Below, one piece after another: positions 1,413 through 20,368 of a stretch of 64,000 nucleotides of DNA. A model generated the notes under the pieces. The model was not told where the DNA came from and did not search any database. It saw only the letters and a program-made list of their open reading frames with translations. Origin of the DNA: Myxococcota bacterium (lineage in GTDB: Bacteria; Myxococcota_A; UBA9160; UBA6930); contig OZ245002.1 in NCBI GenBank assembly GCA_965223415.1, positions 3,008,001 to 3,072,000 of the forward strand, read 5' to 3'. The position numbers and the translations under genes were made by a program. The first letter of the stretch is position 1, and each line of letters opens with the position of its first letter.

Positions 1413-3761
1413 TCAGTCCAGGCCGAGCTCCCGGCGGATGCTCGAGAAATCGAAGCAGGTCTCGCCGGCGCGGCGCCGCTCGCTGTTCTCCATGCTCTTC
1501 AGGAGCAGATCCACCGCCTCCCTGCCGTCTCGGGTTCGCGCCGCTTCCCGAGGCGTCTTCCCATCGAGGGCCGGAAGCGATTCGTCGGACCAGCCGGCGT
1601 AGTGGCGCTCCTTGAACTCGAGGGCGAGCGGGGCCGGCTGGGGCGAGACGGGTTCGGGCTCGGCCGCGCCCGCCAGTGCGACGTCGGACAGCGGATCCTC
1701 GTGGTCGCGAACGCGGTGGCGCAGGAGCCCGGTGCAGGCCTCCTCGATCCGCCCGCGCAGGGTGTCCGCGCGCTCGGGAGAGCTGGTCTCCACAAGCAGG
1801 AAGCGTTCGGCGAGCACGGCCCGGCCGACGGCCGTGTTGTCCCAGCTCTCGTGCCTGCGGTTGCCGGCGACGATGAAGACAAAGACATCCGACCCGGGCG
1901 CCGATTCGTCCACTTCCGCGCCGTCCATGGAGGCGAGACGTGCCGCCACCTCCGAACGCGCGCCCGCCTCGAAATCGAAGCGGTCGGTGGTCATCAGCAG
2001 GGGGTCGCCGTCCGTGTTGCGCACCTCCGGCGGAGTCGACGCTCTCAGGCCGACGTCGGCGAGGGCTTCCTCCCAACGCCGGATCAGATAGCGCCCGATC
2101 GCGTCGTCGCGCAGCCGCTCCACGGGGACGGCGCGCTTGCGGCGGAGACGCCCCCGAGCCCGGCGAACGACCTCTGCCGCCGGAACCGGCGGGAGGTGAT
2201 GGGGATGGAGGCCGTCGATGAGCGACAATCCGTCGTGGTCGACGATTCGCGCGAGAACGGCGTCGTGCAAGACGAGCGACCGCGATGCCGTCACTTCCTC
2301 GACGCAGCGCTCCTCGTCGGACAGGGCGTCCCGGAGCGTGATCGTCTTGCCGGGCTCGACGTCCGCCACTTCCCAGACGGAGAGCCAGGCAGCCGCCTGA
2401 GCGGCGTACCACTTGCGGTCCGCCTCCGGCATCGTCTCTCCGCGCTCTTCGAGAAGCCATTCCACGGCGGTCCGCCCGTCGATGCGGAACCCGAAGATCG
2501 CCCAGGGGAGTGCGAGCTGGAGCGCGGACGGCAGATCCTGGAAATCGCGCTCGAAGCGACGCCAGCCGTCGCCGAAGCGTTCTTCCGCGAAGTCGAAGAG
2601 CGCCTGGATCCGAGACGTCACCGCCTCCTGCCGGGCGCGAAAGACGGGACCGAGATCCGGAACGTCCTCGCGCTCGGACAGCGGAGGCAGGAGAAACGGG
2701 AATTCCTCGAAGGGTACGGTGATTCGGACCTCCCGCCCCTGTGGATCGGAGTAGGTCTCCGTGACCGGCGCGACCCCGTCCAGATCGAACGCCTCCGGGT
2801 GGGCCTCGCAGAACATGGCGACGGCCCGGGCGCCGGCCGCCGCGATCTCGACATCGCGCTGATCGAGCGACCGGGGCGTACCGTCGCGCTCACAGTGAAG
2901 GAGGAAGGGGTAGGCTTCGGCGCCTGCAACAGGCCACCGGTGGGCCTCGATCTCGCGCCGCATCTCCCTCGGAATCTCGGCGCCGGCCTCGAAGTTCAAC
3001 GCCAGCCAGCCGGTTCCGAAGTCCAACGGCGCCGTCTCCGCCGCCCGCTCTTCGGCGACCCGCAGGAAGGCGTCGTAGGCCGAGAGCGAGGGGAAGTTGA
3101 TCAGGCCCAGGCTCTCGCCGAGATACCCGATCACGGACAAGCACGCGCCCTCGACCCCCAGCTCGGGAATGTCCATGCGCAAGGTCTGGTCGTCGGTGAG
3201 GGTCTGCCACGGGGCGATTCGATAGAGCTCGGCGGCGGCGGCGAACAGCTCGGCTATGGACTCGGGCGGGAGGCCGTCCTCCAGGTAGCTCGGCGGCAGC
3301 GTCTCGGTCGAGAAGAACGCCTCCAGCATCTGCCGGAAGACCTCATCGAGCTCCGGGGTCGGGGCGACCTCGACCGCAATGGCGTCGCCGAGCGTTGCGC
3401 GGAGCTCCCCGACGAAGAAGGGGTCGGCGATCCGGACGCGGTCGGGCGCGCGAACGGCGCCGGGGAGGGGCCTCTCGAGGGCGCCCATCAACGTCTCGGC
3501 GAGTGCGGTCTCCGCCCGATAGGACGCCACCACGTCCTGGCCGACGATCAGACCACTGCGCTGGTCCATCCAGAGCACGAAGGCGGGGTGCCGCAGATCC
3601 TCGTCGTCGTTGACCTCGATCGGCGGCGAGAACACGCCGCCCACCCACAAGCGCCGCTTCGTGCGCCGCCCGGCCGCGCGTTCCTTCCGCTTTTCTGCTT
3701 GTCGTCTCAGACGCCGCATGGACATGGTCGACTCCGTAGATCTCTGGGGAAGGTACTGCAC
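1413..3761 (-). CDS. Large hypothetical protein with C-terminal [12 protein letters not shown] (DUF2384/MbcA-like) tail
   Basis: 782-aa ORF with typical codon bias, ending 5 bp before the helicase start. Start may be ATG 3725. Confidence 0.75.
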
Positions 3762-3817
3762 CCGTCGGGCGGGACGACCGCTGGCGACCCGACGGTGGGA
3801 TCGGGCATCTTCGGAGC

Positions 3818-4588
3818 ATGCCTACTGACCACCCCGCCGCCAGTGCGGCAGCCCTCGACGAAGTTCGGTCTTGGATCGACGCCGCCGAGCGCATCGTGGT
3901 GCTCACCGGTGCCGGCATCTCCACCGACTCGGGAATCCCCGACTTCCGCGGCCCCCAGGGCGTGTGGACGAAGGACCCCGAGGCGGAGAAGATGTCCGAC
4001 ATCCGCTACTACGTGGCGGACCCGGAGATCCGCCGCCGCTCGTGGCGGGCGAAGCTGGCCGGCGCCGAGCTGAAGCGGACACCGAACGCCGGCCACCGCG
4101 CCCTCACCGCTCTCGACCGGCGCGGCAAGCTCCACCTGCTCGTCACCCAGAACGTCGACGGCCTCCACCACGACGCCGGCAGCGACCCGGAGCGCATCGT
4201 CGAGATCCACGGGACCCTGCGCGAGTACGCCTGCCTCGATTGCGGCGACCGCGGCCCGATCGGCCTCGTCTTCGACCGCGTGCGCGGCGGCGAGGACGAC
4301 CCCGCTTGCAAGGAGTGCGGAGGCATCCTCAAGTCCGCCACCATCTCCTTCGGCCAGGGCCTCGTCGCCGAAGACCTGGAACGCGCCGACCACGCCGCCC
4401 GGAGCTGCGACCTGCTCCTGGCGGTGGGCTCGACCCTCAGCGTCCAGCCGATCGCGGGCGTCGTACCGCTCGCGCGGCAGTGCGGGGCGAGGATCGTGAT
4501 CGTGAACGGCGAGCCGACGGCGATGGACGAGCTGGCGGACGCCGTCGTGCGCGGGTCGATCAGCGAGGTGCTGGAGCGGATCCTGTAG
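3818..4588 (+). CDS. cobB: NAD-dependent protein deacylase (Sir2/CobB)
   Basis: GAGISTDSGIPDFRG, TQNVDGLH, EIHG, CxxC...CxxC, VGSTL motifs. Confidence 0.9.
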   Translation: MPTDHPAASAAALDEVRSWIDAAERIVVLTGAGISTDSGIPDFRGPQGVWTKDPEAEKMSDIRYYVADPEIRRRSWRAKLAGAELKRTPNAGHRALTALDRRGKLHLLVTQNVDGLHHDAGSDPERIVEIHGTLREYACLDCGDRGPIGLVFDRVRGGEDDPACKECGGILKSATISFGQGLVAEDLERADHAARSCDLLLAVGSTLSVQPIAGVVPLARQCGARIVIVNGEPTAMDELADAVVRGSISEVLERIL

Positions 4589-5039
4589 ACGCGCCCCCGG
4601 CCTTCGCCTTCAAGGCCGCCAGGATCTCCTGGTACACCTGGTTGTGCCCCTTCTCGCCGCCGAGCAGGAAGCCGATGTGCATGAGGAGGCTGTTCGAGCG
4701 CACGCTGCAGACGAAGGACACCTTCGTCTCCTCCGGACCCAGCGGCTCGAACTCCCAGCGACCCTGGCCGATGAGGTCGCCGCCGTCGTAGGTCTCCTCG
4801 ATGGCCCGGGGCGCATCGATCTTCCGGATCGTGCGGACGAAGCGCGACTTCACCGGCGAGCCCGCCGGCGAGAGCACGTGGTTCAGGCGCGCGCCCACGG
4901 CGACCTCGCCGCCACCCTCCACCTCGACCCGGTAGGGCGGGTACCACTCGTGCATCCGCGGGTAGTCGAGGATGATCGCGAAGAGCCGCTCGGCCGGCGC
5001 GGGGATCACGAGACTGTCGACGGTATCGAAGCTCGGCAT
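4560..5039 (-). CDS. SRPBCC/polyketide cyclase-family protein
   Basis: IPAPAERLFAIILDYPRMHEWYP START-like N-terminus. Confidence 0.8.
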   Translation of the reverse strand: MPSFDTVDSLVIPAPAERLFAIILDYPRMHEWYPPYRVEVEGGGEVAVGARLNHVLSPAGSPVKSRFVRTIRKIDAPRAIEETYDGGDLIGQGRWEFEPLGPEETKVSFVCSVRSNSLLMHIGFLLGGEKGHNQVYQEILAALKAKAGGASTGSAPAPR

Positions 5040-5089
5040 GGCGTCAGTGTAGCCTGCGAGCTGCCTCGGGTGCGCGGTAGGCTCGCGGC

Positions 5090-6238
5090 ATGAAGCCCGA
5101 TCGCCTGGCCATCGCCCGCGATCTCCTCCTGCTGACGCCCCGGCTCGCGCGCGCCTGCCTGCGTGTGCAGTGGCACCGGTGGTTCGACCGCCCGGCGGAC
5201 CGGCTGCGGAAGTTCACCGAGGTTCCCTGGCTCGCCGCGAAGATGGGCGTGGCTCAGGGGAGCATCGCCGGCGCCCGCATCGAGGAAGTCCACTCCGGAA
5301 CGGCCAGCCGCTCCCGGCTCCACCTCGACTACACGGGCGAGCCTGTCGGGCCCACGTCGTACTTCATCAAGTCCCGAGCCCCGGACTTCGGCTCGATGCT
5401 GTTCGGCGTCCTCTTCGACCTGGGCGCCAACGAGGTGAGCTTCTACCGCCACCTGCGCAGCGAGTCGCCGGTGAAGTCGCCGGAGGTACTGCACTGCGAA
5501 GGCGGCTCCGCGGACTACGTGATGCTCCTCGAGGACCTGACCGACCAGGGCTGCAGCTTCCAGGACCTCGCCTCGAAGTGCAGCGCGAACGAGGCCCACC
5601 TCGTCATCGCCACCCTGGCGCGCCTCCACGCCGCCTTCTGGGAGAGCCCGCGTTTCCACACCGACCTGGCCTGGGTGAACCGCCTCGAGACGAACCGGGA
5701 CCACCGTTTGCTCGAGCTCGTGCGCAACGTGGCCGTCCCGATCGCCTTCGAGAAGTACGGCGACGTTCTTCCCGAGGAGATCCGCGCTGTCGTACCGCAC
5801 CTGATGCGGAACTACCTCCGCCTGGAGGAGCAGTGGGCCCGGGGCCCGCGGACGCTTCTCCACGGTGACGCGCATCTCGGCAACATGTACTTCCAGGCGG
5901 GCGAGGCAGGGCTCCTGGACTGGCAGGTGTGCCAGCTCGGCCAGGGCATGCGCGACGTCACCTACTTCCTGATCAACTCGCTCGAGGAGGACATCCGGCT
6001 AGAGCACCAGGAGGCGCTCATCCGGCACTACCTGGCGATCCTGACCGAGCGGGGGGTCGGTCTCGACTTCGACACGGCGTGGCGGCAGTACCGGCTTCAG
6101 AGCGTTTACGCGTGGATCGCGGGGGTGGTGACGGCGCCTAGCAACTTCCAACCGGAGAGCGTGGTGGCGGCGGGGCTTCGGCGGGCGTGCGAGGCGATCC
6201 TGGATCTGGATGCGGTGGAGCTGATCCGAAGGCTTTAG
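5090..6238 (+). CDS. Phosphotransferase (APH/ecdysteroid-kinase-like)
   Basis: LLHGDAHLGN and LDWQ motifs. Confidence 0.85.
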   Translation: MKPDRLAIARDLLLLTPRLARACLRVQWHRWFDRPADRLRKFTEVPWLAAKMGVAQGSIAGARIEEVHSGTASRSRLHLDYTGEPVGPTSYFIKSRAPDFGSMLFGVLFDLGANEVSFYRHLRSESPVKSPEVLHCEGGSADYVMLLEDLTDQGCSFQDLASKCSANEAHLVIATLARLHAAFWESPRFHTDLAWVNRLETNRDHRLLELVRNVAVPIAFEKYGDVLPEEIRAVVPHLMRNYLRLEEQWARGPRTLLHGDAHLGNMYFQAGEAGLLDWQVCQLGQGMRDVTYFLINSLEEDIRLEHQEALIRHYLAILTERGVGLDFDTAWRQYRLQSVYAWIAGVVTAPSNFQPESVVAAGLRRACEAILDLDAVELIRRL

Positions 6239-6326
6239 GGCGCGTCGAAGCCTGGCGCAGCCCGTGAATCGCATCCCGACCCCCGACGGAGTACGCTCGG
6301 CACTCACTCGCCGAATCGAGGAAGTC

Positions 6327-7484
6327 ATGACCGACAACGACGCCGCGATGCGCAAGCACGCCGCGGGCACGCCGATGCCCGAGTTCCCGGAGCCCGCGTT
6401 CACCAAGCCGCCGGCCCTGCGCGACGCCAAGGTCGCCATCGTCACGAGCGCCGCACTCGTGCGGGAAGGCGGTGAGCCCTGGCAGTCCGAAGACTTCCAC
6501 TTCGAGGTGATCCCCGACGAGGCTCGAGACCTGAAGCTCGGCCATCTGAGCCCGAACTTCGACCGCTCCGGCTTCGCGAGCGACATCAACGTCGTGTACC
6601 CCGTCGACCGCCTGCACGAGCTGGCCGAACGGGGCGTGGTGGGAAGCGTCGCGAAGCATCACTACGCCTTCGCGGGCAACCAGCCCGATACGCTCTCGGA
6701 GCTGCGCCACGACACCGGCCCCCAGTGCGCGCGAAAGATGCTCGACGAGGGCGTCGACGTCGTACTGCTCACCCCCGTCTGACCCCTGTGCCCGCGTACC
6801 GTGTGTACGCTCGCCCACGTCTTCGAAGCTGCGGGTCTCGCGACCGTCGTCCTCTCCGCGATCCGACCCGTCGCCGAGAAGATGAAGCCGCCGCGCGCGC
6901 TTCACTGCGAGTTCCCCCTCGGCCGCCCCCTGGGCAAGCCCCGGGATGCCGAGTACCAGCATCGCGTGCTGGCCGACGCGTTCGCGCTGCTCGAGCGCCC
7001 GACCGGCCCGGTGTTGGAGGACTTCCCGGAGACGATCGAAAGCGCGGACGAGGCACCGCTCGCCTGCGCCTTGCCGCCGCGCCACGACGCCGACCTGCCC
7101 CCCGCCGTGGACGAGGCCAGGGGCCTGCGACCGGCCTACGACCGCGCCCTCGCAGCGAGCGGCCGCACCTCCGTCGGGCGCGTCATCGGGCCCGACGCCA
7201 TCCCGGACGCGATCGGCGCCTTCGTGCGGATCGCCGAGGGAACCCCGTGGAAGGAAGCGGGCCTGCCCTCGCTACCGATGGCCGTCGTCCACGACATCCG
7301 CGCCTACTACGAAGAGCTCGCCCTCGAGCTGGCCGACGGCGCGCCCGCAGCCTGGGCCGCGGAGCGCTGGTTCTACGACGAGACCAAGGCGGGCCGGGCC
7401 ATCCTCGAGGCGCGGCGGGCGATGAGGGATGCGGAGGCACCCTTCCCGATGTGGTTCTACATGGCGCCTGGGGCGCGCAGCTGA
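6327..7484 (+). CDS. Selenoprotein of the glycine/sarcosine/betaine/proline reductase B family (PrdB-like), UGA 6780-6782 read as Sec
   Basis: Track ORFs 6264..6782 and 6801..7484 share one frame and join as VLLTPV-U-PLCPRTV (UxxC). N-half has KVAIVTSAAL and DINVVYPVDRLHELAERG. GAGGAAG RBS precedes ATG 6327. Confidence 0.85.
6783..6812 (+). promoter_or_regulatory. Candidate bacterial SECIS hairpin
   Basis: GCGTAC (6794-6799) pairs with GTACGC (6805-6810). The loop CGUGU starts 17 nt after the UGA and has G in its first two positions. Confidence 0.65.
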
Positions 7485-7684
7485 CGCTCGGCGCGAACGC
7501 TCCCCGGGGAGTTCCGGCCTAGCAGGACCGTAGGCGGCTCACCCGTCGCGATGTGGACCTCCGGACCCGGCGCCAGACGCCGCAGAGCGCGGGGAGCTCG
7601 GGCCCCAGCCCGCAGCTGGGGCCGCCGCCACTACCCTGGGACCCGTAGGCGCCCGTGTCGCATGCGGGGCCGGAGGGCCGTTCC

Positions 7685-8890
7685 TCACGGTCGGACCAGG
7701 GACAGCCTTCTCTTCGCGGCCGGATGCGCGGGTTCAACGCGGTTCCGTCCGCGCATCTTGGCGGCGTAGAGGGCGCGGTCCGCCCGCTCCAGCAAGGCGG
7801 CGGGGGTGTGGCTCGGCCCGGGGACGAAGGCGGCGGCGCCGAGGCTGAGCGTCACGACGCCGTGGTCCGACGTCTCGTGGGCGAGCGCCCGGGACTCGAC
7901 CGCCTGGCGAATCCGCTCGGCCACGGCGAGGCCTCCCTCCACGTCGATCTCCGGGAGGAGGAGAGCGAACTCCTCGCCTCCGTAGCGGGCGGCCAGGTCG
8001 GAGGCGCGGAGGAGCGACGACTGGATGGTCCCCGCGACGTCGCGAAGACAGGTGTCCCCGGCCGGGTGCCCGTAGCGATCGTTGTACTGCTTGAATTGGT
8101 CGATATCGCACAGGATCACGCACAGCGGGCGCCCGGCTCGCATCGTGCGGCGCCACTCGCGAGAGAGGGAAGCGTCGAAGGTGCGGCGGTTCGCGAGGCT
8201 GGTCAGCGGATCCAGCCCGGCGAGCTGCTCGAGCTCCTCGTTGGCCTGCGCCAGCTGGTAGCGCAGGATCCCGTCCCGGATGCGCATCTGCTCGGCGAGG
8301 AAGGCCACCGCGACGACGAGGACCGATGCCGCGCACAGGAAGACGATCGGTGGCAGCATGACGAGGCCGGCCTCGTGGACCATCAGGTTGATGACGACGT
8401 ATCCGGTCGCGATCGTCGCCTCGATCCCGAGGACCGTCGAGGGCCTGAACGGAAGGAAGAGCGGGACGATCTGCATCAGCACGATGCCGGTCAGGTAGCT
8501 CGCCTCGAATCCGTCGGTCACCGCGCAGATCGCGGAGATCGCGAAGGAGCCGCAGCAGATTCCCGCGATCGAGATCGCGCGGATCGCGGGGGCGAAGCGG
8601 TCCACGAAGCAGAGCGGAAGGCTGACGAGGCACAGCATGAGCACTGGAACGCGGAGCCACAGGAAGGACGCAGCCAGATCGGGTGCGACGATCCGATCCA
8701 GCCCCCAGAAGCTGATGAAGATCAGCGGGCCCAGGCTGAGGAGCACGCGCGCCTGGATCAGGAACTTCACGTCCCGATCGCGCTCGATCTCGTGGACGAT
8801 GGCCGGATCGAGGCGCAGCGACAGGCGCGAATCGCCGACCCACGCGCCGGCGAAATGCGCGTCCGCCGGTCCTTCCTGGTTCGGGTTCAT
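7685..8890 (-). CDS. Membrane-bound diguanylate cyclase
   Basis: N-terminal TM helices; DPLTSLANRR, DIDQFKQYNDRYGHPAGD, RYGGEEF. Confidence 0.93.
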   Translation of the reverse strand: MNPNQEGPADAHFAGAWVGDSRLSLRLDPAIVHEIERDRDVKFLIQARVLLSLGPLIFISFWGLDRIVAPDLAASFLWLRVPVLMLCLVSLPLCFVDRFAPAIRAISIAGICCGSFAISAICAVTDGFEASYLTGIVLMQIVPLFLPFRPSTVLGIEATIATGYVVINLMVHEAGLVMLPPIVFLCAASVLVVAVAFLAEQMRIRDGILRYQLAQANEELEQLAGLDPLTSLANRRTFDASLSREWRRTMRAGRPLCVILCDIDQFKQYNDRYGHPAGDTCLRDVAGTIQSSLLRASDLAARYGGEEFALLLPEIDVEGGLAVAERIRQAVESRALAHETSDHGVVTLSLGAAAFVPGPSHTPAALLERADRALYAAKMRGRNRVEPAHPAAKRRLSLVRP

Positions 8891-10386: not shown

Positions 10387-12043
10387 CCTCGGTGGACACC
10401 CAAAACCGGCCATAGAAGGACGTCTGAAAAGCGGCCATAGGGGCTGACGCCCAGGACGTTGACGACGGCGAGGGACCTGCGATCCCCCGCCGCCATGGCG
10501 AACCTTCTGGGCAACGAGAAACGCGAGCAGATTCTGGCACTTGGCCGCCTCGGCTGGTCGCTTCGGCGGATCGAGGAGGCGACGGGCGTGCGCCGGGAGA
10601 CGGCGAGCCGTTACCTCCGGGCCGCGGGGATCGCGGTGCGATCTCCTGGTCGCTGGGGGCACGGGGCCCCAAACCCGGCCATAGAGGCGTCCACCGACTC
10701 GAAGGCCCCGGCAAAAGCGGCCAAAGAGGCGTCCACCGATCCGGCCTGGCCGCCGATGCCGGGCCGGAGCCCCCAGGCCAGCGCCTGCGAGCCCTACCGC
10801 GAGTGGATCGAGGCGGGCGTGCGCCAGGGCCGGACGGCGATGGCGATCTGGCAGGACCTGGTCGATGACCACGGCTTCGCCTTCAGCTATGCGAGTGTGA
10901 AGCGCTTCGTGGCGAAGCAGCGAGCCGCGGCGCCGCGCGAGGCGCACCCGGTGATCGAGACGGCACCGGGAGAAGAGGGCCAGGTCGACTACGGCGACGG
11001 GCCGATGGTGCGGCATCCCGGGTCGGGGAAGTACCGGCGCACGAGGCTGTTCGTCTTCACCCTGGGCTACAGCCGCAAGTGCGTTCGGCTGCTCGTGTGG
11101 AAGTCGAGCAGCCAGGTCTGGTCGGAGCTGCACGAGAAGGCCTTCCGCCGGCTGGGCGGTGCACCGCGCACCGTCGTCCTCGACAACCTCAAGGAGGGCG
11201 TTCTCAAGCCCGACGTCTACGACCCCGCGCTCAACCCCCTCTACCGCGATGTGCTCGCCCACTACGGCGTGACGGCGCTTCCGTGCCGGGTGCGCCACCC
11301 CGATCGCAAGGGGAAGGTCGAGTCCGGGGTGCGCCACGCGCAGCAGAAGGTCCGCGGGATGCGCTTCGAGTCGCTCGAGCAGGCCCAGGCCTACCTCGAC
11401 CGCTGGGAGCGCCGGTGGGCCGACACCCGCATCCACGGCACGACCAAGCGCCAGGTGGCGGCGATGTACGAAGAGGAGAAGCCGCACCTGCTCGGGCTTC
11501 CCATCGAGCCCTTCCGCTACTACCAGCACGGCGAGCGCACGGTGCACCTCGACGGGGCCATCGAGGTGGAGGGGGCCTACTACCACGCGCCGCCGGGCTG
11601 GCTGGGGCGGCGGGTGGCCGTCCAATGGGACGGGCTGCGGGTGCGGATGCTCGATCTGCAGACGGGGGAGCTGCTGCGCGAGCACGTCCGCCAGAGGCGG
11701 GGGCGCCGCAGGATGCGGGAGGAGGACCGCCCGAAGCGGACGCCGGCCACGACCCTCCAGCTGCTCGCGCGGGCCCGGCGGGCCGGCGCCCACGTGGGCG
11801 AGGTGTGTGAGGCGATCCATCGCCTGGACGGCGAGCCCGGGGTGCGTCGCATCCTGGGCGTGCTCTCCCTGTGCAAGCGCCACGGCATCCCTCGCGTCGA
11901 CGATGCCTGCGCCACCGCCCTGGCCCTCGAGCTGCCCACCTACGCGTTCGTCAAGCGCTACCTGGAGCGTCAGCCCGAGCTGCCGCTCTCGCTCAAGCAG
12001 GTGGACCCGCTCATCCGCCAGCTCACCCACTACCGCGATCTCA
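10387..12043 (+). mobile_element. IS21-family element A, truncated (left end plus istA; no istB or right end)
   Basis: End CCTCGGTGGACACCC with repeats AAAACCGGCCATAG and AAAAGCGGCCATAG. Cut at 12044 by element B. Confidence 0.85.
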
Positions 12044-12072
12044 TGTCGCAGGACGTGATATTCGAGGGCTAA
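10495..12072 (+). CDS. istA: IS21 transposase IstA (last codons supplied by element B end)
   Basis: ETAPGEEGQVDYG, VVLDNLKEGV, DRKGKVESGV. Confidence 0.9.
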   Translation: MANLLGNEKREQILALGRLGWSLRRIEEATGVRRETASRYLRAAGIAVRSPGRWGHGAPNPAIEASTDSKAPAKAAKEASTDPAWPPMPGRSPQASACEPYREWIEAGVRQGRTAMAIWQDLVDDHGFAFSYASVKRFVAKQRAAAPREAHPVIETAPGEEGQVDYGDGPMVRHPGSGKYRRTRLFVFTLGYSRKCVRLLVWKSSSQVWSELHEKAFRRLGGAPRTVVLDNLKEGVLKPDVYDPALNPLYRDVLAHYGVTALPCRVRHPDRKGKVESGVRHAQQKVRGMRFESLEQAQAYLDRWERRWADTRIHGTTKRQVAAMYEEEKPHLLGLPIEPFRYYQHGERTVHLDGAIEVEGAYYHAPPGWLGRRVAVQWDGLRVRMLDLQTGELLREHVRQRRGRRRMREEDRPKRTPATTLQLLARARRAGAHVGEVCEAIHRLDGEPGVRRILGVLSLCKRHGIPRVDDACATALALELPTYAFVKRYLERQPELPLSLKQVDPLIRQLTHYRDLMSQDVIFEG

Positions 12073-12126
12073 GAGGACACGTAGATTTGCGCACCTCCTG
12101 TTGAGCCGCTGCGCGGCACGTTCCCC

Positions 12127-13413
12127 GTGAGGGAGGGGGGCGTGGGGCAGCGGCGACTGAGGCAGGAGGAAGTGATGACGATCGAAGTGCTGCACGAGCG
12201 GGGGTGCTCGAACCGGGAGATCGCCCGCCAGCTGGGGATCCGGGAGAGCGCGGTGCGCTACCGGCTGAAGCGGCTGGCGGAGGGGGCGCGAGACGGCCGG
12301 AGCGGGAAGCCCTTCCTGGCCGAGGCGGTCCACGAGGTGATCGCGGAGTGGCTGGAGGCGAGCTCGGGAGGCCGTGGCGTGAACCTGCAGGAGCTTCACG
12401 AGTTCCTGGTGGAGGAGCACGGGTACACGGGGAGCTCCAAGAGCGTGCAGCGGTACGTGCGGGCCCGGTTCCCGAGACCGAAGGTGCGGAGCCGGCGTCG
12501 GGTGGAGACACCGCCCGGGGCGCAGGGTCAGGTGGACTGGGGCGAGTTTCCGGGCGTGCGGATCGGGGGCCAGGAGGTGGACCTGCATGCCTTCCACCTG
12601 GTGCTCTCGCACTCGCGGCGAGAAGCGGTGGTGTGGTCGGAGCGGGCGGACACGCTGGCGTGGCTGGACGTGCACAACCGGGCCTTCGAGCGGCTGGGCG
12701 GGGTGCCGGCGGTGCTGCGGGTCGACAACGTGAAGACAGCGGTGGCGAAGGGGGCGGGGCCATGGGGGACGGTGAACCCGGCTTACGCGAGCTATGCCGG
12801 GGCCCTTCGCTTCCACGTGGACGCCACCCGTCCCCGCCAGCCGCAGGAGAAGGGGAAGGTGGAGCGTCGGATCCTGGGGCACCGGCGGGGCTTCGATCCG
12901 CGTCGGCGGGAGCACGAGAGCCTGGAGTCGCTGCAAGCGTGGACGGACGGCCAGGTGGCGCGCTCGAGCCACCGGCGGCAGTGCCCGGCGACGGGCACGA
13001 CGGTCTTCCAGGCGTGGGAGGCGGAGAAGCCCCATCTCGGGGCCCTGCCCGAGCGGCTTCCCGAGCCCTTCGACCTGGCCGTGATGCGACGTGTCGGGCG
13101 CGACGCCACGGTGCGCTTCGAGGGGCGTACCTACAGCGTCCCCTTCCGCTTCGTCGAGCAGAGCGTCGAGGTGCGCGGCTGCGCCCGGCAGGTGCAGGTC
13201 TGGGCCGAGGGCTCGGTGGTGGCCGCGCACCCGCGCCACACGCGAAGCCGCCTGCTGCTGGACCCGAGCCACTACGAGGGGCCGAGCACGGAGGGGGTGG
13301 AGGCGCCCGTACCGCTCGGGCGCATGGGTCGACGCCTCCAGGAGCTGTGGGCGATGGAGCCGGAGCAGCGGCCGATCGACCTCTATGCCGATCTGGCGGA
13401 GGTGGCGCGATGA
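12127..13413 (+). CDS. istA: IS21 transposase IstA
   Basis: ETPPGAQGQVDWG, VDNVKTAV, QEKGKVER. Confidence 0.95.
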   Translation: MREGGVGQRRLRQEEVMTIEVLHERGCSNREIARQLGIRESAVRYRLKRLAEGARDGRSGKPFLAEAVHEVIAEWLEASSGGRGVNLQELHEFLVEEHGYTGSSKSVQRYVRARFPRPKVRSRRRVETPPGAQGQVDWGEFPGVRIGGQEVDLHAFHLVLSHSRREAVVWSERADTLAWLDVHNRAFERLGGVPAVLRVDNVKTAVAKGAGPWGTVNPAYASYAGALRFHVDATRPRQPQEKGKVERRILGHRRGFDPRRREHESLESLQAWTDGQVARSSHRRQCPATGTTVFQAWEAEKPHLGALPERLPEPFDLAVMRRVGRDATVRFEGRTYSVPFRFVEQSVEVRGCARQVQVWAEGSVVAAHPRHTRSRLLLDPSHYEGPSTEGVEAPVPLGRMGRRLQELWAMEPEQRPIDLYADLAEVAR

Positions 13414-14210
13414 CGGCGGGAAACCCGGTGCCCAAGAAGGGCGGCAAGGTGGATCTCGACCCGACCCGCGAGCGGCTCGTGCGCCTCGGCCTCCATCACG
13501 CGGCCGAGCACATCGGCGAGGAGCTGGCCCGAGCGACCAAGGACGACCTCGTGCCCCACCGCTTCCTCGACCTGCTGCTCGAGGCCGAGCTGCAGCACCG
13601 CGAGGAGCGGAGGATGAAGACCTCGCTCCGTCTCTCGGGCCTTCCCACGGGGCAGACCCTCGGCAACTTCGACTTCGCCTTCCAGCCGAGTGTGGAGCGG
13701 AGCCGGATCGAGACGCTGGGCACCTGCGCGTGGATCCGGGCCAAGGAGAGTCTGCTGATCCAGGGTCCGCCGGGAGTGGGCAAGACCCACCTGGCGGTGG
13801 CCCTGGGGGTGCGGGCCGTGGAGAACGGCTTCTCCGTGGCCTTCCATCGCCTCGAGGACCTGCTGGCGGCCCTCAAGCGCGACGCCGAGATCAGCCCGCA
13901 ACGGCTGCGGCGGCGCAAGCACATGAACGTGGCGCTCCTCGTCATCGACGAGGTCGGCTTCGAGCCCATGACGCGCCAGGAGGCGAGCCTCTTCTTCCGG
14001 CTCGTCTCCTACCGCTATGGGAGGGGCTCGATCCTGATCACCACGAACAAGGGCATCGCCGACTGGCCCGAGGTGCTGGCGGGCGACGAGGTGCTGGCCA
14101 CCGCCATCCTCGATCGCCTCCTCCACCACAGCCAGGTGCTCAACATCTCGGGGCGGAGCTACCGGCTCCGCGAGCTCGAGCAGGCCGCGGGGCAAAGCGC
14201 CCAGCGTTGA
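13410..14210 (+). CDS. istB: IS21 helper ATPase IstB
   Basis: GPPGVGKTHLA, LLVIDEVGF, AILDRLLHH. ATGA overlap with istA. Confidence 0.95.
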   Translation: MTAGNPVPKKGGKVDLDPTRERLVRLGLHHAAEHIGEELARATKDDLVPHRFLDLLLEAELQHREERRMKTSLRLSGLPTGQTLGNFDFAFQPSVERSRIETLGTCAWIRAKESLLIQGPPGVGKTHLAVALGVRAVENGFSVAFHRLEDLLAALKRDAEISPQRLRRRKHMNVALLVIDEVGFEPMTRQEASLFFRLVSYRYGRGSILITTNKGIADWPEVLAGDEVLATAILDRLLHHSQVLNISGRSYRLRELEQAAGQSAQR

Positions 14211-14345
14211 GGCCCCAGAGGGCGGCCTGACGGCCGTGCTCTCCTTCGGAGAGCGGAAGAGAAGAAGGAAGAACCGAACATCAACCCAGGGGGGTGCGCA
14301 AAACTAGCCGTCCTCTTAGCGCGCAAGAGATGACGTCCCTCGACA

Positions 14346-14711
14346 ATTGTTGCGGCCGTTAAAGGCTGCGGTCTCTGCGCTAGTGAATGCGGAGGCGCCC
14401 GACACGCCAGCGCAGTGCTTCTTCCGCAGTTCGGGGAAGCGCGCGAGCAGGCCAAACCCAACAAGCAGGTGCGTTTTTCCGCCACCCATCGCCTGCTTCA
14501 GATGAAAAACCGCTTGCGACGAAGTACCTGCCAGGCGCGCGACGCCCTCGCTGATGAGGTCCTGCATTCCCTGAGTAATGTGGGTCTTTTCGAAGAAGGC
14601 CCTTCCGTCGCCTTCCGCCGTGATGAGCTCGTCCAGCTGCTCGATCTGGTCGCTGAGCTTGATGGAGAGAGCATTAGCTTCTACCTGGCAAGCATCACGG
14701 ACAGTCTTCAT
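14346..14711 (-). pseudogene. DUF499 AAA+ ATPase, N-terminal stub truncated by IS21
   Basis: FFEKTHITQGMQDLISEGVARLAG...FHLKQAMGGGKTHLL. The frame runs into the IS end after about 122 codons. Confidence 0.8.
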
Positions 14712-14771
14712 CGCTTGGTTGCTCCCGCGGCGCGCTCAAGTGCGCCGCCTATCTCTCAAGAGAACTAGCTA

Positions 14772-16430
14772 CTTCCCGTCCAAGAACTCGTAAGTCACTG
14801 AGAAGAAAAGGAATTGGCGCAAACGCGCCTCCCGATCGAGTTTCGATTGGTGTATGTTAGGTGGTGCCAACCTACCGAACATACACAGCAATTCGCCAAC
14901 CGGGGGGTGAAGCGATGCGCCGATTCCGAGAAACTCAGCTCTCACTCACGCCCACATGGGGTCCGCATCAACATACCCGAGAGCTGCAGATGATCGCCAG
15001 GATCCTCGGGGCGGATCCGCGCTTGGGTGCTGTTGTGCACGGAGATCTGATCGGGGAACGTCGCGCCGATACCGGCCGTCGGGGCCTCAGCGGCGATCAG
15101 GTCCTTCGAATCGCCCTACTCAAGCAGATCCACGGGCTGAGCTACCGGGAGTTGGAGTTTCACCTCCAGGACTCGGCCGCCTTCCGCAGCTTCGTAGGAC
15201 TCGGGCTCGGTGACTGGCCCCGCTTCCAGACCCTTCAGGACAACGTCAAACGGATCCGGCCCGAGACGTGGGAAGCCATCCACCGTGCGTTGATCGGCCT
15301 GGCTCGCCGGGAAGGAATCGAACGAGGCGAGACGATTCGGGCGGATACGACGGTCGTCGAGGCGAACATCCACGAGCCCGCCGACTCGGCCCTGCTCTGG
15401 GACAGCGTTCGGGTGATGACGCGGATTTTGCGAAGGATGGCGAAGCAACGCCCTTCGCTGCGCAAGATGTTCCCGGATCGTCGTCGTTGCGTGAAGCGAC
15501 GCGCCTACGCGATCAAGTTCCACCGGCGGTCGATCAACCTGGTCGCGAGCTATCGGTGCATGATCCGGGCCACGGAAGAGGTCTGCCAAGCGGCCCGTAG
15601 CGTCGCGGAGAGGGTCGCCCGAGTCGAAGACACGACGCCGCTTCGCGAAGAGCTCCTCGCGGTGCTTCCCCTCGTCGAGCGCGTCATCGATCAGAGCCGT
15701 CGCCGTGTCCTCGAAGGCGAGCGCGTCCCTGCAGCCGAGAAGATCGTGTCGATCTTCGAGCCGCACTCGGACATCCTCGTGAAGGACAATCGAGGCACCT
15801 ACTACGGTCACAAGGTCTGTCTGACTGGCGGCAGGTCGTCACTCGTCCTCGACTGTGTCATCGAGGAAGGAAACCCTACGGACTCGACGCTGGTCGAACG
15901 TACGCTCGAGCGCCATGCAGATCTCTTCGGCAAGGCACCCCGCCAAGTGGCGATGGACGGAGGCTTCGCGTCCATGGACAACGTTGCCAAGGCCAAGGCG
16001 CTCGGCGTGGAAGACATGGCCTTCAACAAGAAGAGCGGACTCGAGGTCCACGAGATGGTGCGCAGCGCCTGGGTCTTCCGGCGCCTTCGTGACTTCCGCT
16101 CGGGGATCGAGGGCGTGATCTCGACGCTCAAGCGAGCGTTCCAGATGGACCGATGCACCTGGCGGGGCCTGGCGTCCTTCAAGGCCTATGTCTGGGCCAG
16201 TGTGACGAGCTTCAACCTCGTCGCCTTGGCCCGCCACCTGCTGACTCGCGAGTTCGCCTGAACCCCTGAGAGTGGTTCGGTCGGTGGACACGTGCGCCCG
16301 CGCATCGGAACACGGTCGCTCACTCACCCCGACGGCTCCGGGACTGCTGTGACATCGCTACTCTCAACGCCCGCGAAGACCGCCAACGATCCACTAAGAG
16401 GCCGACGAACGGCTCTTCTCGGACGGGAAG
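14772..16430 (+). mobile_element. DDE insertion sequence (IS5-like/ISNCY), copy 1, 1659 bp, TSD TAGCTA
   Basis: IRs CTTCCCGTCCAAGAA and TTCTCGGACGGGAAG. TAGCTA at 14766-14771 and 16431-16436. Confidence 0.93.
14915..16261 (+). CDS. DDE transposase
   Basis: RADTTVVEANIHEPADS, YYGHK, AMDGGF, FRSGIEGVISTLKR. Confidence 0.93.
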   Translation: MRRFRETQLSLTPTWGPHQHTRELQMIARILGADPRLGAVVHGDLIGERRADTGRRGLSGDQVLRIALLKQIHGLSYRELEFHLQDSAAFRSFVGLGLGDWPRFQTLQDNVKRIRPETWEAIHRALIGLARREGIERGETIRADTTVVEANIHEPADSALLWDSVRVMTRILRRMAKQRPSLRKMFPDRRRCVKRRAYAIKFHRRSINLVASYRCMIRATEEVCQAARSVAERVARVEDTTPLREELLAVLPLVERVIDQSRRRVLEGERVPAAEKIVSIFEPHSDILVKDNRGTYYGHKVCLTGGRSSLVLDCVIEEGNPTDSTLVERTLERHADLFGKAPRQVAMDGGFASMDNVAKAKALGVEDMAFNKKSGLEVHEMVRSAWVFRRLRDFRSGIEGVISTLKRAFQMDRCTWRGLASFKAYVWASVTSFNLVALARHLLTREFA

Positions 16431-16433
16431 TAG

Positions 16434-16868
16434 CTATCTGTCGCCACGCAGCAGAAAGAAGTTCTCGAGCACCCGCGGCCCTACGCCCTTGACCGGAGCA
16501 AGCATGCGCCGTACCTCGTCGCAGCTTCCGTGCTCGAGAATCTCCGTGTACTGACCGATTGAGCCACTTCCAAGGAACGCACCGAGTGAGACCAGGCGAT
16601 CTGTGAAGATTGCCGTCATCGTATCCCCGCGGTTGTATCCACCGGCTCCGAGTTTCTTGGCAATCGAGGCGGAAGGTGCCTCGTTCAAGACTGCTGGGTC
16701 GAAGAGACCCTGAGCTTGCAGTGCATCGAATAAGGCGAAGGTGCGTTCAAGCGGATAGTTGTTGACCGACAGCATCGCCATCACGAGGTCCGCCCACGGT
16801 CCCGTGACGATCTCGCTTGCTCCCCGTTTGGCTGCTTTCAACGAACCCCCCTGCGGATCACCCAGCAT
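16434..16868 (-). CDS. Hypothetical protein with C-terminal helix-hairpin-helix-like motif
   Basis: LAPVKGVGPRVLENF; overlaps the excisionase stop region. Confidence 0.6.
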   Translation of the reverse strand: MLGDPQGGSLKAAKRGASEIVTGPWADLVMAMLSVNNYPLERTFALFDALQAQGLFDPAVLNEAPSASIAKKLGAGGYNRGDTMTAIFTDRLVSLGAFLGSGSIGQYTEILEHGSCDEVRRMLAPVKGVGPRVLENFFLLRGDR

Positions 16869-17064
16869 CCGACCTTTGGTCCGCGTTCTTTTGCTTGCGA
16901 ACTTGGATCCATTCCTCGAGGTCACTCCTTTGGAATCTCCACGCGCCGGCAACCTTGAAGCCAGGGAGTTCTCGCCGTTGCGCTAGGCGGTACACAGTCT
17001 TCTCGTTCACGTTTAGGTAGGCCGCCACGTCTCGGACGGTCATCGCAGGCAGGGAGTCCTTCAT
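16858..17064 (-). CDS. Excisionase-family HTH DNA-binding protein
   Basis: MTVRDVAAYLNVNEKTVYRLAQRRELPGFKVAGAWRF; AGAGGAG RBS. Confidence 0.88.
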   Translation of the reverse strand: MKDSLPAMTVRDVAAYLNVNEKTVYRLAQRRELPGFKVAGAWRFQRSDLEEWIQVRKQKNADQRSDAG

Positions 17065-17218
17065 CTGGCTCCTCTGGGAAACAGGTCCAAACCTGTCCAT
17101 CCTATGTGGTGGCTGGCCGGCTGGCAAGCAGAAAAGGTTCGCCGTTTCAGCCGGTTAGGCTCCCCGCTGCGTCCGGCGGCCAGCAGATCGCCCGGGTCGG
17201 TAGCGCACCGGGTGGCTT

Positions 17219-18149
17219 CTAAGTCGCACCGCTGTCGAGGGGAAGCACGTCCGCATTCGCGGCTCCGCTCATCGCCGCGCTGATCCGATTCCCGATCCCG
17301 TTCGTGGCCTTCCGGAGGGGGTCGTCTGCGAGGTGCGCGTAGCGGGCGGTGGTGCCGGGTTGGCGGTGACCCAGCAACGCCCCGAGGACGGGAAGACCCA
17401 GATGGCTCGCCACTCCAACCGAGGCGAACGAGTGGCGGAGGTCATGGAGTCGCACTCCGGGGAGCCCTGCCCGATCTCGGACCAGGGACCAGGGCTTCGC
17501 GATGTTGACGAGGGGCCTCCCAGGCACTCTTCCCGGGAAGACCCACCCCGATGCCTTGGTGTATCCGAACAGGTCCGCGAGGACGGACTGGGCCGCCGTG
17601 TTGAGAACCACAGCCCTCGGCTCCGTCTTGGTCTCGCGGAGGAAGATCCTGCCTTCGGGAAGCCGCACGTCGCTCCACCGCAAGGCTAGTGTCTCTCCCA
17701 CCCGGAGCCCGGTCAGCGCCAGGAAGCGAATCGCTGACCCGGCCACCCGGGAGATGGCCGTCTCGGCCACGAGGCTGTCCAGGGCCTGGCCGAGCCGCTC
17801 GTACTCGTCGAGCGAGAGGTGGCGGTCCCGCTTTCGCTCCTTGAACTTGGGGATCTCTTTCGCAGGGTTCTCATGGTTCTTGGGCAGCAGCCCCTCGCGA
17901 AGCGCGTAGGAGAACATCGCACGCGTCACCTTCAAGACCCGGTTCGCAAGGACCGGGGTTTTCTTCATGCGCACGTGGATTCTGGAGAGGTCGGATCGGG
18001 AGACGTCGGTGATGAGCAGGCTTCCAAGCCTCGGCACCAGGTGCTTCTCGAGGACGTGCCGTGCTTCGCGCTGCGTGGCCCGGCGGGAGTGCACCTCGAC
18101 GTACTGGGAGAGGTACCGGTCGACCAGCTCGCGAACCGAGAGAGTGGCC
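17219..18149 (-). pseudogene. int: Tyrosine integrase, core and catalytic part
   Basis: LTGLRVGE, HDLRHSFAS, LLGH...TTARYAH. Separated from its N-terminus by IS21 B copy 2. Confidence 0.92.
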
Positions 18150-18284
18150 TGTCGAGGGACGTCATCTCTTGCGCGCTAAGAGGACGGCTAGTTTTGCGCA
18201 CCCCCCTGGGTTGATGTTCGGTTCTTCCTTCTTCTCTTCCGCTCTCCGAAGGAGAGCACGGCCGTCAGGCCGCCCTCTGGGGCC

Positions 18285-19085
18285 TCAACGCTGGGCGCTT
18301 TGCCCCGCGGCCTGCTCGAGCTCGCGGAGCCGGTAGCTCCGCCCCGAGATGTTGAGCACCTGGCTGTGGTGGAGGAGGCGATCGAGGATGGCGGTGGCCA
18401 GCACCTCGTCGCCCGCCAGCACCTCGGGCCAGTCGGCGATGCCCTTGTTCGTGGTGATCAGGATCGAGCCCCTCCCATAGCGGTAGGAGACGAGCCGGAA
18501 GAAGAGGCTCGCCTCCTGGCGCGTCATGGGCTCGAAGCCGACCTCGTCGATGACGAGGAGCGCCACGTTCATGTGCTTGCGCCGCCGCAGCCGTTGCGGG
18601 CTGATCTCGGCGTCGCGCTTGAGGGCCGCCAGCAGGTCCTCGAGGCGATGGAAGGCCACGGAGAAGCCGTTCTCCACGGCCCGCACCCCCAGGGCCACCG
18701 CCAGGTGGGTCTTGCCCACTCCCGGCGGACCCTGGATCAGCAGACTCTCCTTGGCCCGGATCCACGCGCAGGTGCCCAGCGTCTCGATCCGGCTCCGCTC
18801 CACACTCGGCTGGAAGGCGAAGTCGAAGTTGCCGAGGGTCTGCCCCGTGGGAAGGCCCGAGAGACGGAGCGAGGTCTTCATCCTCCGCTCCTCGCGGTGC
18901 TGCAGCTCGGCCTCGAGCAGCAGGTCGAGGAAGCGGTGGGGCACGAGGTCGTCCTTGGTCGCTCGGGCCAGCTCCTCGCCGATGTGCTCGGCCGCGTGAT
19001 GGAGGCCGAGGCGCACGAGCCGCTCGCGGGTCGGGTCGAGATCCACCTTGCCGCCCTTCTTGGGCACCGGGTTTCCCGCCGTCAT
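18285..19085 (-). CDS. istB: IstB ATPase
   Basis: Same translation as copy 1. Confidence 0.95.
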   Translation of the reverse strand: MTAGNPVPKKGGKVDLDPTRERLVRLGLHHAAEHIGEELARATKDDLVPHRFLDLLLEAELQHREERRMKTSLRLSGLPTGQTLGNFDFAFQPSVERSRIETLGTCAWIRAKESLLIQGPPGVGKTHLAVALGVRAVENGFSVAFHRLEDLLAALKRDAEISPQRLRRRKHMNVALLVIDEVGFEPMTRQEASLFFRLVSYRYGRGSILITTNKGIADWPEVLAGDEVLATAILDRLLHHSQVLNISGRSYRLRELEQAAGQSAQR

Positions 19086-20368
19086 CGCGCCACCTCCGCC
19101 AGATCGGCATAGAGGTCGATCGGCCGCTGCTCCGGCTCCATCGCCCACAGCTCCTGGAGGCGTCGACCCATGCGCCCGAGCGGTACGGGCGCCTCCACCC
19201 CCTCCGTGCTCGGCCCCTCGTAGTGGCTCGGGTCCAGCAGCAGGCGGCTTCGCGTGTGGCGCGGGTGCGCGGCCACCACCGAGCCCTCGGCCCAGACCTG
19301 CACCTGCCGGGCGCAGCCGCGCACCTCGACGCTCTGCTCGACGAAGCGGAAGGGGACGCTGTAGGTACGCCCCTCGAAGCGCACCGTGGCGTCGCGCCCG
19401 ACACGTCGCATCACGGCCAGGTCGAAGGGCTCGGGAAGCCGCTCGGGCAGGGCCCCGAGATGGGGCTTCTCCGCCTCCCACGCCTGGAAGACCGTCGTGC
19501 CCGTCGCCGGGCACTGCCGCCGGTGGCTCGAGCGCGCCACCTGGCCGTCCGTCCACGCTTGCAGCGACTCCAGGCTCTCGTGCTCCCGCCGACGCGGATC
19601 GAAGCCCCGCCGGTGCCCCAGGATCCGACGCTCCACCTTCCCCTTCTCCTGCGGCTGGCGGGGACGGGTGGCGTCCACGTGGAAGCGAAGGGCCCCGGCA
19701 TAGCTCGCGTAAGCCGGGTTCACCGTCCCCCATGGCCCCGCCCCCTTCGCCACCGCTGTCTTCACGTTGTCGACCCGCAGCACCGCCGGCACCCCGCCCA
19801 GCCGCTCGAAGGCCCGGTTGTGCACGTCCAGCCACGCCAGCGTGTCCGCCCGCTCCGACCACACCACCGCTTCTCGCCGCGAGTGCGAGAGCACCAGGTG
19901 GAAGGCATGCAGGTCCACCTCCTGGCCCCCGATCCGCACGCCCGGAAACTCGCCCCAGTCCACCTGACCCTGCGCCCCGGGCGGTGTCTCCACCCGACGC
20001 CGGCTCCGCACCTTCGGTCTCGGGAACCGGGCCCGCACGTACCGCTGCACGCTCTTGGAGCTCCCCGTGTACCCGTGCTCCTCCACCAGGAACTCGTGAA
20101 GCTCCTGCAGGTTCACGCCACGGCCTCCCGAGCTCGCCTCCAGCCACTCCGCGATCACCTCGTGGACCGCCTCGGCCAGGAAGGGCTTCCCGCTCCGGCC
20201 GTCTCGCGCCCCCTCCGCCAGCCGCTTCAGCCGGTAGCGCACCGCGCTCTCCCGGATCCCCAGCTGGCGGGCGATCTCCCGGTTCGAGCACCCCCGCTCG
20301 TGCAGCACTTCGATCGTCATCACTTCCTCCTGCCTCAGTCGCCGCTGCCCCACGCCCCCCTCCCTCAC
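19082..20368 (-). CDS. istA: IstA transposase
   Basis: Same translation as copy 1. Confidence 0.95.
   Translation of the reverse strand: MREGGVGQRRLRQEEVMTIEVLHERGCSNREIARQLGIRESAVRYRLKRLAEGARDGRSGKPFLAEAVHEVIAEWLEASSGGRGVNLQELHEFLVEEHGYTGSSKSVQRYVRARFPRPKVRSRRRVETPPGAQGQVDWGEFPGVRIGGQEVDLHAFHLVLSHSRREAVVWSERADTLAWLDVHNRAFERLGGVPAVLRVDNVKTAVAKGAGPWGTVNPAYASYAGALRFHVDATRPRQPQEKGKVERRILGHRRGFDPRRREHESLESLQAWTDGQVARSSHRRQCPATGTTVFQAWEAEKPHLGALPERLPEPFDLAVMRRVGRDATVRFEGRTYSVPFRFVEQSVEVRGCARQVQVWAEGSVVAAHPRHTRSRLLLDPSHYEGPSTEGVEAPVPLGRMGRRLQELWAMEPEQRPIDLYADLAEVAR

Follow-up and report, generated by a model that had tools for sequence, protein, structure and literature searches.

A Gene for a Probable Stand-Alone PrdB-Like Selenoprotein in a Myxococcota Bacterium

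The Locus and Its Reading Frame

A stretch of 64,000 nucleotides (nt) from a Myxococcota bacterium (assembly GCA_965223415.1, contig OZ245002.1, positions 3,008,001 to 3,072,000), hereafter called the window, contains a gene related to prdB that is open for 385 codons from its ATG at 6327. Direct translation shows that the sole interruption is a TGA triplet at 6780-6782, which separates two open stretches of one frame (6225-6782 and 6783-7484, stop to stop). With this TGA read as selenocysteine (Sec, U), the surrounding sequence is ..VVLLTPV-U-PLCPRTVCTLAHVFE.., or in short form ...LLTPV-U-PLCPRTVC.... It is considered very likely that 6327-7484 is one gene, encoding a 385-residue selenoprotein of a stand-alone PrdB-like family, in which the UGA specifies Sec and a hairpin downstream acts as the SECIS (Sec insertion sequence). 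From the sequence evidence, the identity of the product as a selenoprotein appears well supported. The features of the locus are collected in Table 1.

An initial annotation, made from the letters of the window alone, had described two open reading frames (ORFs) in the same frame, split only by this TGA and reading TPV-U-PLC, and the frame and translation agree with that description. The start at ATG 6327 agrees with the N-termini of homologs. The G+C content at third codon positions is 0.87 before the TGA and 0.91 after it, matching the real genes of the window (overall G+C 68.6%), and the antisense ORFs that overlap the gene failed this third-position filter. A promoter and terminator scan of positions 5900-7900 found neither.

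Table 1. Features of the selenoprotein gene, its surroundings and a related locus
Feature	Position	Strand	Remarks
DUF7309/DUF6930 protein	1413-3821	-	Pfam scan
Sir2-family gene	3818-4588	+	upstream region
SRPBCC/polyketide-cyclase-like gene	4560-5213	-	upstream region
APH/EcKL-type kinase	5090-6238	+	88 nt upstream of the selenoprotein gene, same strand
Shine-Dalgarno-like GAGGAAG	6318-6324	+	read from the sequence; ends 2 nt before the ATG
Coding sequence of the putative selenoprotein, 385 residues	6327-7484	+	translated with TGA as U; terminal TGA at 7482-7484
PrdB/GrdB-type alpha/beta core, residues 19-223	6381-6995	+	TIGR04483, 132.1 bits; Pfam GRDB PF07355, 31.5 bits
UGA codon probably read as Sec, U152	6780-6782	+	TGA in 76/80 related loci, TGT in 4/80; Cys in 16/19 full-length database homologs
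Cys155 codon, putative resolving Cys of UxxC	6789-6791	+	invariant in 62/62 aligned sequences; start of helix 155-168 in the model
SECIS-type hairpin, 17 nt	6794-6810	+	stem GCGUAC 6794-6799 / GUACGC 6805-6810; loop CGUGU 6800-6804
Family-specific C-terminal region	7023-7481	+	linker ~233-258, helical domain 259-385; no Pfam or NCBIfam match
Cys247 codon, invariant third cysteine, linker motif PLxCxLPP	7065-7067	+	62/62 sequences
GGDEF protein	7685-8890	-	convergent with the selenoprotein gene; insertion-sequence region next
Cytochrome P450	31007-32308	-	aerobic-lifestyle set
Catalase	40599-42113	+	aerobic-lifestyle set
PQQ-dependent alcohol/glucose dehydrogenase	42783-45551	+	Pfam PQQ, E = 6e-237; stop-to-stop frame, domain from ~residue 305
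tRNA-SeC of relative L009	16248-16341 (L009 record)	-	~5 kb downstream of the selenoprotein gene homolog
selB of relative L009	16367-18229 (L009 record)	-	same cluster as tRNA-SeC
selA of relative L009	18226-19593 (L009 record)	-	same cluster as tRNA-SeC

Conservation of the UGA Codon

Homologs of the read-through protein are numerous. A protein search gave 2188 matches at E ≤ 0.001 among 8000 scored candidates, and the top 120 were listed. Among these, full-length proteins of about 380-460 residues are 45-59% identical to the window protein, and many 227-residue ORFs, 65-87% identical, cover only the part behind the TGA. The latter start just after the TGA and are Sec forms truncated by gene callers. 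Entries P0042-P0121 include dozens of these 227-residue C-terminal parts, labelled "hypothetical protein" or "D-proline reductase (dithiol) PrdB" by the Joint Genome Institute (JGI), and such entries constitute a systematic annotation gap for the stand-alone PrdB-like family. Public databases split the gene and most of its relatives into ORFs of 151 and 227 residues, and a single enzyme is recovered when the UGA is read as Sec. The initial annotation had proposed to look for Cys at the UGA position in homologs, and in an alignment with 19 full-length database homologs this residue was found in 16.

Further evidence came from a scan of species-representative genomes with tblastn, in which 565 related stretches were confirmed; the results on loci given here and below cover the best 80 of the 565. 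At 76 of the 80 loci TGA stands at exactly the same codon and is the sole stop in the match, and at the other four (L034, L063, L069, and L073) the codon is TGT, which specifies Cys. The matches to query residues 1-385 extend across the TGA in the related loci. The suggestion of a single 385-residue read-through selenoprotein is borne out by this distribution, and it is from this conservation that the UGA at 6780-6782 would be taken to be decoded as Sec.

Record titles and the tree assign 53 of the 80 loci to Actinomycetota (mostly Acidimicrobiia), 15 to Pseudomonadota, 6 to Binatota, 4 to Chloroflexota, and 2 to lineages labelled Myxococcota/Deltaproteobacteria. None of them exceeds 70% identity to the window protein, which branches near a group of Binatia and Gammaproteobacteria in the protein tree. 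The four Cys forms are a single clade from Halieaceae and Porticoccaceae, and the Sec/Cys difference needs only one change on the tree. Acidimicrobiia and Binatia from soil and freshwater also carry the family.

The SECIS-Type Hairpin

The initial annotation had placed a 6-bp stem with a CGUGU loop 17 nt downstream of the UGA. The hairpin itself is present, but counted from the last base of the UGA the stem starts at 11 nt, and it is the loop that starts at 17 nt. Beyond the 6-bp stem, two weaker outer pairs can form (6790-6791 with 6813-6814).

The 60 nt from the TGA onward could be aligned without gaps in 77 Sec forms (the 76 loci and the window). All six stem pairs are kept in 76 of the 77, the exception being L065, with a U.C at the bottom pair. 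The pair 6797/6807 is C-G in 39 Sec forms and U-A in 38 and is broken in none, and 6796/6808 alternates between G-C and G-U. On a quick protein tree, the switch between U-A and C-G at 6797/6807 takes at least five changes. RNAalifold, run on the same alignment, predicted this stem together with the two outer pairs. All four Cys forms have a C.A mismatch at the covarying pair, and three of them carry one or two extra mismatches; all four encode the identical R-T-V-C-T-L peptide. Since the hairpin is intact in Sec forms and broken in Cys forms, the structure appears to be kept where the UGA needs decoding and to decay elsewhere. The earlier proposal of a SECIS-type hairpin 3' of the UGA can thus be extended to one that is maintained through compensatory change.

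A small apical loop holding a G is given as a feature of bacterial SECIS elements in the Sargasso Sea study (PMC1088965). In common with known elements, such as that of Escherichia coli fdhF, the present hairpin follows the UGA directly on its 3' side, within the coding sequence, and has a small G-bearing loop. It differs from the fdhF element in that its stem is without the bulged U and its sequence is unrelated, and binding to SelB is predicted only. The minimal fdhF element is a 17-nt upper stem-loop located 11 nt past the UGA, and the hairpin at 6794-6810 has exactly this size and spacing. As its conservation strongly suggests, the 17-nt hairpin would serve as the bacterial SECIS element and would recruit SelB with Sec-tRNA(Sec) while the UGA is occupied by the ribosome.

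Protein Architecture

The first part of the protein is a PrdB/GrdB-type core. Its best NCBIfam match is the PrdB model TIGR04483 (E = 2.2e-38, profile positions 14-219 of 238), and this score fails the equivalog cut-off of 300 bits. The Pfam family GRDB is matched above its gathering score of 22, over profile positions 206-345 of 347 only. The GrdB-type models of NCBIfam are likewise matched in their C-terminal halves only (about positions 206-411 of 435) and below their cut-offs; for the subfamily TIGR01918, the score is 47 bits against a cut-off of 65.45, and the full-length GrdB architecture of about 435 residues was not found. The Sec-containing UxxC motif, U152-P-L-C155, sits in this core, as expected from the earlier description of a PrdB/GrdB-like protein with a UxxC redox motif.

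Residues from about 225 to 385 have no family match in Pfam or NCBIfam. A structure model was made by AlphaFold2 with a 62-sequence alignment and shows one compact fold (predicted local distance difference test, pLDDT, 95.5; predicted template modeling score, pTM, 0.94). In the model, U152 lies in the loop between the strand 145-149 and the helix 155-168. Internal pLDDT is lowest (82) in the linker block 241-250, which lacks regular secondary structure, and residues 259-385 are all helices. The extra C-terminal region noted initially (DIRAYYEE...ERWFYDETKAG) is present and predicted to be helical. Besides C155 and C247, the residues T40, S75, D79, D86, E167, R190, Q211, E263, and W348 are invariant in the 62-sequence alignment.

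When the C-terminal region alone was searched against 1.84 billion representatives, 241 proteins were found at E ≤ 0.001. Among the 150 of these that were listed, bar a few oddities, the region stands at the C-terminal end of proteins that are about 380-420 residues long, or belongs to cut ORFs of about 227 residues and to shorter fragments. As it is seen behind a PrdB-like core or in fragments, the domain appears to belong to the stand-alone PrdB-like family alone. Possible fusions were considered and set aside as uninformative: P0143 (1019 residues), P0215, and P0217 have no Pfam domain, and P0157 looks chimeric. The succession of core, linker with a conserved Cys, and helical C-terminal domain with the YYEE motif is common to the full-length homologs, at 44-70% identity.

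Known Relatives

The family is not new, and in this respect the suggestion of novelty in the initial annotation goes too far. Members were published in 2005, C-terminal domain included, as "Proline reductase PrdB" selenoproteins from the Sargasso Sea (PMC1088965). Entries of that name in its supplement, AACY01802489 and AACY01584242 among them, have the site ..LLT(P/G)(V/T)-u-P(L/M)C.RT.. and the motif FPLGRPLGKP, and one has the C-terminal motif ..DIRCYYEELA..; these motifs were matched by eye and not by alignment. With 42 such selenoproteins, the family ranks third in abundance in the same source, whose Table 3 lists it among thiol-dependent redox selenoproteins. The Global Ocean Sampling (GOS) study of 2008 gives 235 Sec and 110 Cys forms (PMC2398784). 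The present gene is a further member of this already known Sec-containing family, with the same UxxC motif and from another genome.

In the available parts of the two marine catalogues (PMC1088965, PMC2398784) the PrdB label is kept and the stand-alone long form is not set apart. The marine family is also mixed, with at least one supplementary entry of PMC1088965 having a ..VPS-u-GLC.. site and a short C-terminus. The main text of PMC1088965 does not contain the term "PrdA". Two reviews list D-proline reductase with TIGR04483, and no stand-alone form is separated in the portions available (PMC9312934, PMC13188914). No statement was found in the literature searched, the GOS supplements lying outside the search, that the long forms fail the PrdB equivalog test, carry their own Cys-bearing C-terminal domain, and lack a conserved partner. 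Likewise, no paper devoted to the stand-alone form was found, and GrdB-like terms led to literature on Synergistota only.

D-proline reductase is described in review as an enzyme whose PrdB subunit bears Sec in a UxxC motif and in which D-proline is cleaved reductively to 5-aminovalerate. The present protein shares with PrdB of Clostridium sticklandii and C. difficile a homologous alpha/beta core and the UxxC Sec motif. It differs from PrdB by about 150 additional C-terminal residues, a domain that carries the invariant Cys247, by the lack of a visible prdA or prdC nearby, and by the hosts of the family, which are labelled Binatia, Acidimicrobiia, Gammaproteobacteria, Dehalococcoidia/Chloroflexota, and Myxococcota. 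With GrdB, GrdF, and GrdH, it shares the passed GRDB gathering score and the match to the C-terminal half of the GrdB-type profiles. Unlike in GrdB, the N-terminal half of about 200 residues is absent, and no grdA, grdE, or grdC lies nearby. The third Cys of the GrdB motif UxxCxxC, as a review describes it, is not found at that spacing here; the sequence is U-P-L-C-P-R-T-V-C, and its last Cys is variable.

For a selenoprotein specialist the result is ordinary: a useful correction of a label and not a new kind of selenoprotein. What the window contributes is a further member and a clean comparative SECIS data set, with no new principle. The interest lies in the function of an abundant and probably mislabelled family, ranked in the published catalogues, as far as available, among the surface-ocean selenoprotein families of greatest abundance.

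Evidence Against the Selenoprotein Reading

Several observations weigh against the interpretation of the gene as encoding a SECIS-directed selenoprotein with an intact redox centre. A perfect 6-bp hairpin at 8-16 nt is found after 32 of the 1121 TGA triplets of the window (2.9%), an 81-nt region around the present one is no more stable than shuffled sequences (z = 0.59), and an Rfam scan of the window gave no family, SECIS included, at the gathering score. On its 3' side, the covarying pair uses the first position of a Thr/Val codon, so that protein-level selection contributes to that column, and the GU of the loop falls within a Val codon, where protein constraint contributes too. The tree on which the switches were counted included the hairpin's own codons. 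On its own the hairpin is weak evidence; the comparative data lift it above chance.

At the protein level, three of the 19 full-length homologs (P0045, P0063, and P0090) carry Gly, Ala, or Ser at the Sec position, which suggests that the redox centre is dispensable in some members. These three retain the second Cys of the motif and may be inactive or divergent paralogs. A search of solved structures by sequence returned only a chance match (E = 0.21), and Foldseek against the PDB returned nothing at E ≤ 0.001 (best TM 0.27). With no related solved structure, the fold is unusable for inferring function.

The machinery of Sec insertion is also missing from the window. Neither selA, selB, nor selD was found among ORFs of at least 80 residues in the 64 kb, and the window has no tRNA-Sec, no tRNA gene of any kind, and no second candidate selenoprotein gene. 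Twelve in-frame TGAs lie between stretches of high third-position G+C, and only the one at 6780-6782 is part of a redox motif. In favour of the reading, the machinery was found in one relative. The locus L009, from a metagenome-assembled genome (MAG) of Gammaproteobacteria, encodes a Sec form 67% identical to the window protein and has tRNA-SeC, selB, and selA in a cluster beyond it (Table 1). No other of the 80 loci shows Sec machinery in the flanks that were fetched, and a tblastn search with its SelA and SelB against the window and the 80 loci gave a match in L009 alone.

Genomic Surroundings and Stand-Alone Status

The initial annotation had stated that no prdA, grdA/grdE, or thioredoxin gene lies nearby. 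This was upheld both in the window and among the conserved neighbours of the 80 relatives. The domain scan of the window covered 164 ORFs (20 + 17 + 127, the 127 being all stop-to-stop frames of at least 80 residues outside genes already scanned), and none of these genes was found among them. For the neighbours, all ORFs of 80 residues or more that lie up to about 6 kb from the gene at the 80 loci and in the window (4117 ORFs) were clustered by single linkage; the clusters include some antisense shadow ORFs. Among the top 30 listed, 26 were recurring neighbour clusters, each in at least 5 of the 81 loci. Representatives of 17 were scanned, and PrdA, GrdE, GrdA, PrdC, and thioredoxin were not among them.

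No conserved neighbour was found: leaving aside the gene itself and its shadow frames, the most frequent cluster is present at only 21 of the 81 loci. The recurring neighbours are SDR (21/81), sulfatase (17), acyl-CoA synthetase (17), DUF2855 (16), enoyl-CoA hydratase (15), and luciferase-like monooxygenase (11), followed by CoA-transferase, acyl-CoA dehydrogenase, alpha/beta hydrolase, flavin monooxygenase, MFS and EamA transporters, a metallo-beta-lactamase-fold protein, an ArsR regulator, and three proteins without a family. The APH/EcKL kinase and GGDEF neighbours of the window gene are in none of the 26 recurring clusters listed, and the arrangement of neighbours differs by lineage.

In the Binatia MAGs L003 and L014, the gene lies between two co-directional luciferase-like monooxygenase genes, at about 1.6 kb on each side, and the other four Binatia loci have one luciferase-like gene directly downstream. 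As the six Binatia loci are near-identical, this flanking counts as one or two observations. In two Porticoccaceae with Cys forms, the gene is followed by a run of acyl-CoA synthetase, CoA-transferase, and SDR genes. An acyl-CoA theme was considered as a functional clue and set aside as unproven, the neighbours being lineage-variable, drawn from very large families, and without a background control.

Function and Alternative Explanations

From homology and the structure model, U152-P-L-C155 would stand at the N-terminal end of a helix in a PrdB/GrdB-related core. By analogy with PrdB and GrdB, the selenolate of U152 would attack the substrate, Cys155 would resolve the adduct with formation of a Se-S bond, and a cellular dithiol system would re-reduce this bond; we infer catalysis by U152 and C155 from homology only. 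The helical C-terminal domain, found only in this family, would pack onto the core and bring in the invariant Cys247, and domain and cysteine together probably serve to form the pocket or to lengthen the redox relay. As no PrdA, GrdE, or GrdA partner is encoded nearby, the product is probably not a D-proline reductase. A self-sufficient reductase of a small molecule in mostly aerobic heterotrophs is the more likely assignment by these analogies, and a role outside Stickland fermentation is plausible. Taken alone, this account of chemistry and substrate is offered tentatively and given a little under an even chance.

An unlikely alternative is that the protein is a general selenol/thiol-disulfide oxidoreductase or redox sensor with an antioxidant role and without a small-molecule substrate of its own. 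A UxxC motif at the N-terminus of a helix resembles the thiol oxidoreductases, the placement of the family in Table 3 of PMC1088965 is compatible with such a role, and the protein is found in aerobes with no fixed metabolic neighbour. The homology, however, is to substrate-cleaving reductases and not to a thioredoxin fold. Moreover, many invariant polar and charged residues (S75, D79, D86, E167, R190, Q211, E263, and W348) are far from UxxC in sequence, and these distant residues and the large dedicated domain suggest a specific binding pocket.

The proposal of a self-sufficient reductase could also be carried further. In PrdA and GrdE, a cysteine is the precursor of an autocatalytic pyruvoyl group. 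The long form might unite in one chain what the Stickland reductases divide between two subunits, with Cys247, in the flexible linker, as a third redox thiol or, more boldly, as a pyruvoyl precursor, an idea that must be called a long shot. If the pyruvoyl version were true, one polypeptide would activate and reductively cleave an amine or related C-X bond in aerobic bacteria, and the abundant "PrdB" selenoproteins of the ocean would represent a new class of enzymes that has carried a wrong label for two decades.

It is very improbable that the protein is the PrdB subunit of a genuine Stickland-type D-proline reductase with prdA elsewhere in the genome. PrdB is its best NCBIfam match, several homologs carry this name in JGI annotations, and the published catalogues use the label. 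The score, however, is far under the equivalog cut-off, and the 385 residues include a 150-residue domain lacking in the 238-position PrdB profile. No PrdA-type gene was seen among the window ORFs or the 17 neighbour-cluster representatives scanned, and the hosts belong to largely aerobic lineages. The window itself fits the latter, as it encodes a PQQ dehydrogenase and the catalase and P450 from which the initial annotation had characterized the organism (Table 1). The proline reductase label for the family thus rests on homology below the curated cut-off, without a partner subunit, and is doubtful.

Two readings deny a selenoprotein altogether, and the chance of either is negligible. A pseudogene or sequencing error, in which a Cys codon (TGC or TGT) became TGA, would be in keeping with the single base that separates TGA from the TGT of the Cys forms and with the window's lack of Sec machinery, but the identical TGA recurs across five phyla, in 76 of 80 species-level genomes, the protein is 55-70% conserved on both sides of it, third-position G+C stays at 0.91 past the stop, and the hairpin is conserved and covarying in TGA forms only. 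Two separate genes, one for a 151-residue protein ending at TGA 6780 and one for a 227-residue protein from GTG 6801, would match the many 227-residue ORFs of public databases, some of them "hypothetical protein", but each Cys form is a single ORF of about 395 residues, the split falls invariably at the Cys-equivalent codon, and it would sever strand 145-149 from helix 155-168 within the alpha/beta core of one confidently predicted fold.

Other Features of the Window

The region beyond the GGDEF gene contains repeated sequences. Positions 12044-14345 and 18150-20451 are an exact inverted repeat (100% identical, 2302 bp), and both copies contain an rve/Mu-type transposase, in a stop-to-stop frame of 443 codons, as well as a 379-residue ORF without a Pfam match. 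From this content, the 2302-bp unit looks like an insertion sequence. Between the copies lie a DDE transposase (14861-16261), an HTH_17 protein (16861-17154), and a phage-type integrase (17219-18175), and the region 12044-20451, at a distance of 5 kb from the selenoprotein gene, is possibly a composite mobile element. An additional rve-type transposase is encoded at 10441-12072. A second insertion sequence, with a DDE_Tnp_1 transposase of 466 residues, occurs at 14765-16436 and, inverted, at 62163-63834 (1672 bp, 99.88% identical).

The APH/EcKL-type kinase upstream of the selenoprotein gene (5090-6238) is one of two APH-type kinases in the window. The second, an APH-family phosphotransferase at 35478-36749 on the minus strand, is divergent from a radical SAM protein encoded at 36754-38268 on the plus strand.

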